Assembly (NCBI RefSeq): GCF_000332035.1
Contig: NZ_ALVY01000227.1
Span: 18,270 to 42,269, forward strand
DNA length: 24,000 nucleotides
DNA from: Gloeocapsa sp. PCC 73106
GTDB taxonomy: Bacteria; Cyanobacteriota; Cyanobacteriia; Cyanobacteriales; Gloeocapsaceae
Direction of reading: 5' to 3'
The position numbers were made by a program, and so were the translations under genes. Each line of letters starts with the position of its first letter. The first letter of the stretch is position 1. This document shows, in pieces, positions 9,628-9,998 of this stretch. Below the pieces are notes generated by a model. The model worked only from the letters and a program-made list of their open reading frames with translations, was not told where the DNA came from and searched no databases.

Positions 9628-9713
9628 TGGAGCAGGCGGGAGTTGAACCCGCGACACCGATAACCCTCATTTTGCGTTCCAAATGGACAAGGAGTAAACA
9701 AAGGTACTGCCCC
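9628..9713 (-). ncRNA. tRNA-like / Y-RNA-like unit A (86 nt; no D arm, eroded Rsr-binding helix, tmRNA-TLD-like acceptor/T arm)
   Basis: Minus-strand RNA: GGGGCAG-UA-CCUUUGUUU-ACUCC-UUGUCC-AUUU-GGAA(C)GC-A-AAAUGAGGG-UUAUCGGUGUC-GCGGG-UUCAACU-CCCGC-CUGCUCC-A.
- Acceptor stem is 7 bp with G3:U70 and discriminator A.
- T stem is a perfect 5 bp.
- The 9-bp upper stem is kept.
- The Ro-type helix has 2 mismatches. Confidence 0.6.
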
Positions 9714-9740
9714 TTGATTTCAACCTTTAGTTCAGGTCGA

Positions 9741-9850
9741 TGAAGCAGACGGGATTCGAACCCGCGACTGTCGGTAACCCTTATTCTTCGGTCTTAATAG
9801 ACAAGGAGGCAAATAAGGAACTTGACGCTCTACCGCTGAGCTACTGCCTC
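9741..9850 (-). ncRNA. tRNA-shaped Y-RNA-like unit B (110 nt; Rsr-binding hairpin in place of the anticodon arm)
   Basis: Minus-strand RNA: GAGGCAG-UA-GCUC-AGCGGUA-GAGC-GUC-AAGU-UCCUUAUUU-GCCUCC-UUGUCU-AUUA-AGAC(C)GA-A-GAAUAAGGG-UUACC-GAC-AGUC-GCGGG-UUCGAAU-CCCGU-CUGCUUC-A.
- Canonical U8, a D arm with GG, and a T loop UUCGAAU.
- 7-bp acceptor stem with G3:U70 and A73.
- There is no anticodon loop. Instead there is a 3-bp stem, an internal loop, a 9-bp stem, an asymmetric loop, and a 6-bp helix with a bulged C capped by a tetraloop. Confidence 0.75.
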
Positions 9851-9877
9851 TTGATTTCAACCTTTAGGTTCGGTTGA

Positions 9878-9998
9878 TGGAGCAGACGGGATTCGAACCC
9901 GCACTTTGCGCACTGCAAGCGATAACCCTCATTTTTCGGCCTCAATAGACAAGATACAAACAAGGATAGAACACGTTCTGCCCTTAAACTACTGCCCC
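9878..9998 (-). ncRNA. tRNA-shaped Y-RNA-like unit C (121 nt; as unit B plus a long variable-arm hairpin)
   Basis: Minus-strand RNA: GGGGCAG-UA-GUUU-AAGGGCA-GAAC-GUG-UUCUA-UCCUUGUUU-GUAUC-UUGUCU-AUUG-AGGC(C)GA-A-AAAUGAGGG-UUAU-CGC-UUGCAGUGCGCAAAGU-GCGGG-UUCGAAU-CCCGU-CUGCUCC-A.
- The architecture is the same as unit B.
- Changes relative to unit B are compensatory or wobble (GUC/GAC versus GUG/CGC; pair 2:71 is G-C versus A-U). Confidence 0.75.

Follow-up and report, generated by a model that had tools for sequence, protein, structure and literature searches.

What kind of RNA is encoded by the tRNA-like units that stand beside a cyanobacterial rsr gene? We addressed this question in a 24,000-nt stretch of the genome of Gloeocapsa sp. 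PCC 73106 (contig NZ_ALVY01000227.1, positions 18,270–42,269; hereafter the window, in its full length), in which a Y RNA array and rsr, the gene of the Ro60 orthologue Rsr, are read on the minus strand. Three tRNA-like units share the strand of rsr and are located 47–417 nt 5′ of its start codon. In the accepted picture, the tRNA-like domain of a bacterial Y RNA is a capped, permuted mimic that cannot be charged, with Mycobacterium smegmatis as the sole exception. The published register of cyanobacterial YrlA follows that picture, the RNA ending in the Ro60 stem and carrying a capped, “much longer” acceptor stem (PMC4201824; bioRxiv 10.1101/312249). The cyanobacterial arrays described here point to a widespread and different architecture with complete tRNA bodies, open acceptor ends and, in many units, an encoded CCA. 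We regard tRNA-scaffolded Y RNAs with free tRNA-type ends as the probable overall picture, and their alanylation in vivo as possible, though rather unlikely.

The units, their Ro60-binding hairpins and the spacers between them are arranged as follows, from 5′ to 3′.

9878–9998, minus strand: unit 1, 121 nt from G1 to A73 (covariance model, 108.8 bits at full length; fold)
9936–9952, minus strand: in unit 1, the predicted Ro60-binding hairpin UUGUCU-AUUG-AGGC(C)GA; it contains a bulged C and, as GCCGAA, the GNCGAA motif
9851–9877, minus strand: spacer between units 1 and 2, a trailer hairpin UCAACC-GAACCUAAA-GGUUGA and then AAUCAA (sequence)
9741–9850, minus strand: unit 2, 110 nt (Rfam tRNA model, 47.7 bits; covariance model, 97.5 bits; fold)
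9788–9804, minus strand: predicted Ro60-binding hairpin of unit 2, UUGUCU-AUUA-AGAC(C)GA, in which the G·U pair of unit 1 has become A-U
9714–9740, minus strand: spacer between units 2 and 3, a trailer hairpin UCGACC-UGAACUAAA-GGUUGA and then AAUCAA (sequence)
9628–9713, minus strand: unit 3, 86 nt (covariance model, 47.5 bits with the D arm deleted; ends in the tmRNA model, 36.4 bits)
9674–9690, minus strand: degenerate Ro60-binding hairpin of unit 3, UUGUCC-AUUU-GGAACGC, as judged against units 1 and 2 and the family consensus

Reading the minus strand confirmed the acceptor stems given in a first-pass annotation of this DNA, namely GGGGCAG/CUGCUCC in two units and GAGGCAG/CUGCUUC in the other, each with G3·U70 and A73. 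All three stems are of 7 bp. In unit 1, which has the first of these stems, G1 is nucleotide 9998, G3 (9996) pairs with U70 (9881), A73 is 9878 and the trailer is UCA. Unit 3 has the same stem, with G1 at 9713, G3 (9711)·U70 (9631), A73 at 9628 and the trailer UCG. Unit 2 has the variant stem, with G1 at 9850, A2-U71, G3 (9848)·U70 (9744), A73 at 9741 and the trailer UCG; its 2:71 pair is the sole acceptor difference among the units and is compensated (G-C to A-U). Pairwise identity among the three units is 60–71%. The block GAAAUCAA precedes units 2 and 3, which have the leader AAUCAA in common, and AAUAAUUUUU precedes unit 1. CCA is encoded in none of the three. The trailers, the AAUCAA leader in two cases and the lack of an encoded CCA had likewise been described, and all are present in the sequence. 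The stem of the spacer between units 1 and 2 recurs with another loop 3′ of an alanine-like unit in the locus L081, whose Rsr is 87% identical (related loci are cited here by L numbers).

The order within a unit, 5′ to 3′, is acceptor 5′ strand, UA, D arm, helix H2, internal loop, helix H1, the block GGUUAUCG, variable hairpin, T arm, acceptor 3′ strand and A73. The D arm is canonical in unit 2 (GCUC-AGCGGUA-GAGC), weak in unit 1 and absent from unit 3. H2 is formed by AUCCUU/GAGGGU and H1 by UUGUCU/AGGC(C)GA, with a bulged C and a 4-nt closing loop; GGUUAUCG is an invariant block 3′ of H1. The T arm of unit 1 is GCGGG-UUCGAAU-CCCGU, and a small variable hairpin stands between it and the Y RNA module. 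That of unit 3 is GCGGG-UUCAACU-CCCGC, and the acceptor and T arm of this unit are close to the tRNA-like ends of tmRNA. In each unit, the Y RNA module occupies the place of the tRNA anticodon loop. We considered the module as a tRNA intron and rejected this, because its removal restores no anticodon loop and the insert is a conserved Ro60-binding module.

Unit 2 passes the Rfam tRNA model (gathering score 29), its anticodon arm containing a 51-nt insertion. Units 1 and 3 were recognised for their cloverleaf arms only by a custom covariance model, not by the Rfam model; the custom model was built from relatives and matches all three window units end to end. ARAGORN, run on the window and 60 loci, called none of the Y RNA units a tRNA, since the anticodon arm and loop are replaced, and found no tRNA genes or tmRNA in the window. 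The fold of unit 1 keeps the acceptor, T arm and module, and the minimum free energy (MFE) fold of unit 2 is cloverleaf-like (z-score −1.97). The MFE fold of the whole 529-nt array is dominated by the repeated T arms pairing together and is uninformative on the register.

The GNCGAA motif has been tied to Ro60 binding by Chen et al. 2014 (PMC4201824). It reads ACCGAA in unit 2, a near-match, and AACGCA in unit 3, with two substitutions in its core. The first-pass annotation had pictured all of these RNAs as tethered to Rsr; for unit 3 this is doubtful, its Ro60-binding motif being damaged.

Relatives of the units were sought in 80 genomic and 80 metagenomic rsr loci, together with the loci of individual close Rsr proteins. 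A simple unit finder collected 428 distinct units from 146 cyanobacterial rsr loci, all with the same type of array, which typically holds two to five units. The covariance model gave 384 matches in 89 sources, including units 3′ of rsr in Nostocales. RNAalifold recovered the acceptor, D, H2, H1 and T helices unaided, with compensatory changes in 18 of 31 pairs, and the H1 helix is among those showing compensatory changes in relatives. Across 144 distinct model-aligned units, 97.7% of cells pair, versus 42–56% when the partners are slid by 1–3 columns. Double-sided changes occurred at 16 pairs in these units, versus 4.4 in shuffles, and none of 500 shuffles reached 16.

The register of the units was judged from the pairing of their acceptor strands. 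Among 246 adjacent pairs of units, the acceptor 3′ strand paired better with its own 5′ strand than with that of its neighbour in 192 and worse in two, with means of 7.8 versus 6.2 of 8 pairs. In the window, own pairing is 21/21 and neighbour pairing 13/14; in L081, neighbour pairing reaches only 5/7. H1 is capped by a GNRA loop (GAAA, GCAA, GUAA or GAGA) in 245 of 273 units, and the arrays start with an acceptor 5′ strand and finish with an acceptor 3′ strand. On relatives, the Rfam tRNA model passes its gathering score in the tRNA register, and a search of eight related loci found no YrlA match at gathering score. The Rfam YrlA model (RF02553), whose gathering score is 69, matches the window at 25.8 and 24.5 bits, and both matches span unit junctions. 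As read from their sequences, the units are a circular permutation of YrlA with open tRNA-type ends, and free acceptor ends with tRNA-type processing are well supported as a prediction. The proposal that the ends are open, unlike those of the capped YrlA, was thus borne out by the register comparison and the GNRA-capped Ro60 helix. A full-text literature search found no paper on cyanobacterial Y RNAs in the tRNA register or with alanine identity.

A CCA is encoded one base past the last acceptor pair in 206 of the 428 units, against a chance expectation of about 3%. Of these 206, 136 have it after an 8-bp stem and N, and 69 after a 7-bp stem and N; the 8-bp class has A as its discriminator in 128/136 and U at position −1 in 123/136. 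Cyanobacterial tRNA genes are usually described as lacking an encoded CCA. One of the loci has an ordinary tRNA-Pro gene that agrees with this description in having no CCA, and the encoded CCA of the Y RNA units therefore stands out. A single transition separates the window trailers AUCAA and AUCGA from the ACCAA found in relatives. A mature CCA end on the window units is plausible, because relatives very often encode N73-CCA at the expected place. For M. smegmatis YrlA, cutting by RNase P and the attachment of CCA occur in vivo (PMC4201824). We infer, on a good foundation, that the window units would likewise be processed to a free CCA end. The idea that an encoded RCCA guides RNase P via the P15 loop was dropped: cyanobacterial RNase P RNA reportedly has no such CCA-binding motif.

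In 12 of 141 loci, none of them from Nostocaceae, the array has a same-strand gene for a tRNA nucleotidyltransferase of the CCA-adding family directly 5′ of it (L010 982–2241, plus strand; L001, L016, L030, L031, L073, L085, L092, L095, L101 and L125; L089 duplicates L010). The −35 box of the array sits inside the last codons of this gene, and the window has hpf in this place instead.

Three further features accompany the window array.

7971–9581, minus strand: rsr, the Ro60 orthologue, with TROVE (PF05731) and Ro60 vWA (PF25045) domains, directly 3′ of unit 3
10335–10363, minus strand: sigma-70-like promoter, TTGACA, 17-nt spacer, TATCGT (10/12 consensus matches)
10024–10100, minus strand: Y RNA-like stand-alone hairpin of linear, canonical topology, outside any tRNA body (sequence and fold)

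The rsr product matches the Gloeocapsa sp. PCC 73106 TROVE protein at 100% identity, and the rsr start codon lies 47 nt past the end of unit 3. No terminator-like site was found on the minus strand between the promoter and rsr, and the promoter at 10363–10335 probably drives the whole Y RNA array together with rsr. A block that resembles it, CTTGACA...TA-rich...AATACAAG, stands 5′ of the arrays in the other loci read.

The mechanism that we propose begins with this probable co-transcription of the units with the upstream linear Y RNA and rsr. The tRNA-processing machinery would then probably release the units, RNase P cutting at G1 and an endonuclease cutting 3′ of A73, after which the CCA-adding enzyme would complete the end, as it does for the CCA-less tRNA genes of the host. 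The predicted product is an RNA with a free tRNA-type acceptor end, unlike the capped YrlA. It would bind Rsr through the bulged-C helix H1, the Ro60 module consisting of H2, the internal loop and the tetraloop-closed, bulged-C H1 within an unpermuted tRNA scaffold. Its G1-C72/G2-C71/G3·U70/G4-C69/A73 end is one of several tRNA-type ends in the family, the others being leucine-like or bearing G73 or C73, and represents the local version of the most common one, the GUGG.../...CUAC-A-CCA of Nostocales.

Several observations weigh against this picture. Nostocales dominate the counts from relatives, which lack phylogenetic independence. The folds of single units just modestly beat those of shuffled sequences (z-scores −1.2 to −2.0), the putative Ro60 helix is capped four pairs beyond the bulge, and the window units do not themselves encode the CCA. 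Unit 3 has no D arm and two substitutions in the Ro60 motif; it may therefore be a decaying copy or just a processing signal.

The first-pass annotation had also proposed that the units could be alanylated. The alanine identity set of bacteria comprises A73, G2-C71, G3·U70, G4-C69 and G20 (PMC9976931). Units 1 and 3 hold all of its acceptor-stem elements. G4-C69 is present in all three units and G2-C71 in units 1 and 3, with A2-U71 in unit 2 and U2-A71 in the Nostocales relatives. At position 20, the D loop of unit 2 (AGCGGUA) has U, that of unit 1 (AAGGGCA) is ambiguous, and unit 3 is without a D arm. In principle, units 1 and 3 would be competent substrates of alanyl-tRNA synthetase (AlaRS), and unit 2 less so.

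We then counted acceptor pairs from the acceptor end across the relatives. A third-pair G·U is found in 113 of the 428 units. A73 accompanies it in 110 of these 113, versus 117 of the 315 other units, and an encoded CCA in 96 of the 113 (Fisher odds ratio 10.5; the samples are not independent). The third pair is the only G·U-rich one among the top seven acceptor positions (27.6% versus 2.6–8.6%). The commonest acceptor type, GUGG[C/U].../...CUAC-A-CCA of Nostocales, differs within the top five pairs from the GGGGC.../...GCUCC-A of the window at pair 2 only, and the third-pair G·U is therefore homologous in the two. G3·U70/A73 is the commonest acceptor type in the relatives, with at least one such unit in 80 of 133 arrays. 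The type GGGGCGA/UCGCUCC-A occurs in L084 and L169, and a partial CCGCUCC-A unit in L081. Other classes of unit terminate in G-CCA or C-CCA.

The same survey holds the main evidence against an alanine-specific role. No G3·U70/A73 unit was found in 53 of the 133 arrays (40%), of which 28 have only A3-U70 and 25 have neither, and A3-U70 and G3-C70 variants are common among relatives. In the closest relatives, the D-arm units (L165, L169 and L084) have A3-U70, as GGAGCGG/NCGCUCC-A or GGAACGG/CCGUUCC-A. The rsr-proximal unit is tRNA-Leu-like with U3-A70 in the closest relatives L081 and L083, as well as in L084 and L165. Parsimony on a neighbour-joining tree of unit bodies (416 units) gave about 39 gains or losses of the alanine-like state, which appears to be labile or else scrambled by gene conversion between units. 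Moreover, the bottom pair of the 8-bp stems is also G·U-rich, so that richness in G·U does not by itself point to AlaRS. The expected conservation of G3·U70/A73 in rsr-linked homologues therefore holds in part: it is the commonest, CCA-associated type, and it is absent from two-fifths of the arrays and from the D-arm units of the closest relatives. Its retention in three diverged copies had also been read as suggesting selection or else simple descent from a tRNA-Ala gene. The roughly 39 changes, contrary to the stable inheritance hoped for, weaken the case for selection. The alanine-type end is the most frequent one and probably a favoured one, yet not a universal requirement. On our reading, the family would consist of Y RNA modules set in assorted tRNA bodies.

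The tRNA-Leu-like units carry the D arm UGGCGGAAUUGGUAGACGC, a long variable arm and the end CCCCACC-A-CCA (L081 63–199, L083 169–305, L084 2601–2797 and L165 399–524; CCA is encoded in L081 and L083). Judging by these features, the rsr-proximal units of the four loci clearly derive from tRNA-Leu. The unit in L084 has two Y modules in tandem within one tRNA body.

An alternative that goes beyond free-ended, tRNA-scaffolded Y RNAs would make an alanine charge in vivo central. Alanyl-Y RNAs would bind EF-Tu or ribosomes in the manner of tmRNA, or titrate AlaRS or processing enzymes, and so couple Rsr to translation or tRNA quality control. The full acceptor-stem alanine set of units 1 and 3 speaks for it, as do the tight association of the third-pair G·U with A73 and encoded CCA, the 80 arrays that keep at least one such unit, and the presence of the CCA-adding gene as the upstream neighbour at 12 loci. 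Unit 3 would also fit, since its acceptor and T arm are perfect and tmRNA-like while its Ro60 motif decays. These points are offset by the arrays that have no G3·U70/A73 unit, including the 28 with A3-U70 alone, by the evolutionary lability of the state and by the U2-A71 that replaces the G2-C71 identity element in the Nostocales type. In addition, the other discriminators and the tRNA-Leu-like bodies fit descent from assorted tRNAs rather than an alanine-specific function, the units lack both an anticodon and a tag reading frame, and the window showed no SmpB-like partner. We consider this alternative doubtful. A wider proposal would have aminoacylated Y RNAs in many cyanobacteria and some Ro60 phages, as contiguous, CCA-ended tRNA/Y RNA chimeras, matured in the manner of tRNAs, whose dominant class is charged with alanine by AlaRS, the charged end linking Ro60/Rsr to EF-Tu, ribosomes or tRNA surveillance, or protecting the RNA from degradation; we put it forward only tentatively, as an unlikely but testable idea.

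Next, the units might be decaying tRNA-Ala pseudogenes or “punctuation”, in which only the acceptor–T minihelix matters, as the signal for a cut that releases the rsr mRNA and the Y RNA upstream, and G3·U70 is a relic. Unit 3, reduced to its acceptor, T arm and damaged module, would suit this, and so would the labile alanine-like state and the parent-tRNA features kept by the tRNA-Leu-like units of relatives. We nevertheless think it very unlikely: within the units, conservation of the Y module is strong across the 146 loci, with compensatory changes, the bulged-C helix is intact in units 1 and 2, arrays of two to five units are maintained on both sides of rsr beyond the needs of punctuation, and the G·U is position-specific and tied to A73 and CCA. 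Least credible, and highly improbable, is the canonical YrlA reading, in which each RNA runs from the Ro60 strand of one unit to that of the next and the “acceptor” has no free end, being a long stem that the spacer hairpin caps: the weak Rfam YrlA matches do cross unit junctions, the window spacers are short and hairpin-forming and could lengthen such a stem, and “longer acceptor stems” in cyanobacterial YrlA are on record (Chen et al. 2014; Wang et al. 2018), but those matches fall far under the gathering score, own-strand pairing beats neighbour pairing by 192 to 2, neighbour pairing leaves an A·C mismatch in the window and only 5/7 pairs in L081, the Ro60 helix is closed by a GNRA loop in 245/273 units, orphan halves would be left at the two ends of an array, 48% of units have CCA after the acceptor 3′ strand, and the spacers of Nostocales are long, variable and AT-rich.

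Among known systems, the closest family to these tRNA-scaffolded Y RNAs is YrlA, the closest functional precedent is the YrlA of M. smegmatis, and the closest alanine-acceptor fusion analogue is tmRNA. Like the units, YrlA (RF02553; Chen et al. 2014; Wang et al. 2018) lies near rsr on the same strand, has a bulged GNCGAA Ro60 helix with tRNA-like T, D and acceptor elements and is often multicopy. It differs in that its ends form the Ro60 stem and its acceptor is closed by a loop, whereas the units end at the acceptor and have a tetraloop-closed Ro60 helix. The units also score only about 25 bits against a threshold of 69, and many of their relatives encode CCA. The M. smegmatis RNA (Chen et al. 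2014) is a Y RNA with a 7-bp acceptor-like stem that RNase P opens and to which CCA is added in vivo, and its authors noted that it “could potentially be aminoacylated” (PMC4201824). Its permuted form yields two base-paired halves and no amino acid identity set was reported for it, whereas the Gloeocapsa units, as read from their sequences, are contiguous and carry acceptor-stem elements of the alanine set.

The tRNA-like domain of tmRNA resembles the units in fusing a G1-C72/G2-C71/G3·U70/A73 acceptor and a T arm to a non-tRNA module. When the tmRNA model (RF00023) is compared with unit 3, which has no D stem, only the ends align, with 36.4 bits against a gathering score of 47 and 290 model positions skipped. 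Unlike tmRNA, the units have no tag reading frame, pseudoknots or encoded CCA, unit 3 is only 86 nt long, and the expected partner is Rsr rather than SmpB. Membership of the units in Rfam YrlA or tmRNA was rejected, as both score under their gathering thresholds; we retain them as resemblances. The likeness to tRNA-Ala lies in A73, G2-C71, G3·U70 and G4-C69 of units 1 and 3 and in the passing of the Rfam tRNA threshold by unit 2; the differences are the 50–60-nt Y RNA module that replaces the anticodon arm and, in unit 2, A2-U71 and U20. Aminoacylatable viral tRNA-like structures and mascRNA-type signals are comparable as non-translational RNAs that mimic tRNA in order to attract RNase P, a CCA-adding enzyme or an aminoacyl-tRNA synthetase. 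The units differ from these in being chromosomal, bacterial and linked to Ro60, and in having a true cloverleaf body rather than a pseudoknotted mimic.

These RNAs have recognisable tRNA identity sets: the window units and the commonest class have alanine-like ones, other classes leucine-like ones. If the RNAs were charged, Ro60 biology would be tied directly to aminoacylation and translation, and alanine-charged Y RNAs would join tmRNA as a second tRNA mimic of bacteria that accepts alanine. Even if they are uncharged, the published register of cyanobacterial YrlA needs revision, and tRNA gene finders and Rfam now miss or mislabel these genes.

Variants of the arrangement were seen in other loci. 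Many Nostocales have units of the same family directly 3′ of rsr as well (L041 4608–4767, L038 4678–4797; about 4600–4800), and in the window the covariance model found none there. In a “type II” module, the Ro60 hairpin follows directly after the D arm, H2 (GAGGGU/CCCUU) is closed by its own loop, and the module joins the tRNA body at the internal loop instead of at the H2 end (L001 2299–2438, L016 2262–2403, L007 1816–1951 and L010 2336–2469). In L017 (2345–2415, plus strand), ARAGORN called a “tRNA-Ile (AAU)” that starts directly after a Y RNA module within the array, and this is a further way to join module and tRNA-like body. A DNA-pattern scan of viral sequences gave mostly chance matches, and rescreening with the covariance model kept only L192, L227 and L241. 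These are IMG/VR viral contigs of higher GC content with units in the tRNA register (L241 2330–2727, minus strand; L227 6981–7118, plus strand; L192 4163–4321, plus strand), and the architecture is therefore not confined to cyanobacteria. The units of L241 are directly 3′ of a Ro60 open reading frame (ORF; 2849–4696, minus strand), and that of L227 is beside RecT and YqaJ recombination genes.

The stand-alone hairpin at 10024–10100 follows the promoter after a leader of about 230 nt. Its bulged Ro60-binding helix, CCCAGAGGC(C)GA/UUGUCUCUGGG, is made by the RNA termini and has no tetraloop; the MFE fold closes this terminal helix (z-score −3.35). The blocks GAAGGUUAUCG and UCCUUUGUUCAC are common to this hairpin and to the modules within the units. 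One operon thus holds the Y module in two topologies, a linear hairpin 5′ of three tRNA-embedded units. A scan of other loci with a regular expression for more Y RNAs of this linear topology gave only a spurious match, which spans two window units. Within the leader, a hairpin at 10158–10201 (minus strand) has the stem GGUGGUGG/CCACCAC followed by GCAA, and it looks like the acceptor minihelix remnant of a lost unit of the GUGGUGG/CCACCAC type.

In relatives (loci L001–L169), the last ~40 nt before the rsr start codon contain an extra Ro60-binding hairpin, UUGCCU-GNRA-AGGC(C)GG, which overlaps the rsr ribosome-binding site GGAG (for example L001 2995–3020). A strict pattern detected it in at least 92 of 144 distinct loci, and most of the others carry a variant form; it is absent from 9582–9627 of the window and from L081 and L083. 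Because this Ro60-binding hairpin overlaps the ribosome-binding site, its position in relatives suggests that Rsr may repress its own translation.

The gene hpf, encoding a long-form ribosome hibernation factor with S30AE domains, is located at 10450–11046 (minus strand), directly 5′ of the array promoter, so that a ribosome-linked stress gene neighbours the rsr operon in Gloeocapsa sp. PCC 73106. Elsewhere in the window, the catalytic domain of a group II intron (Rfam RF00029, 50.8 bits) at 20146–20222 (minus strand) adjoins a 559-aa ORF at 20254–21933 (minus strand), both unrelated to the Y RNA units.

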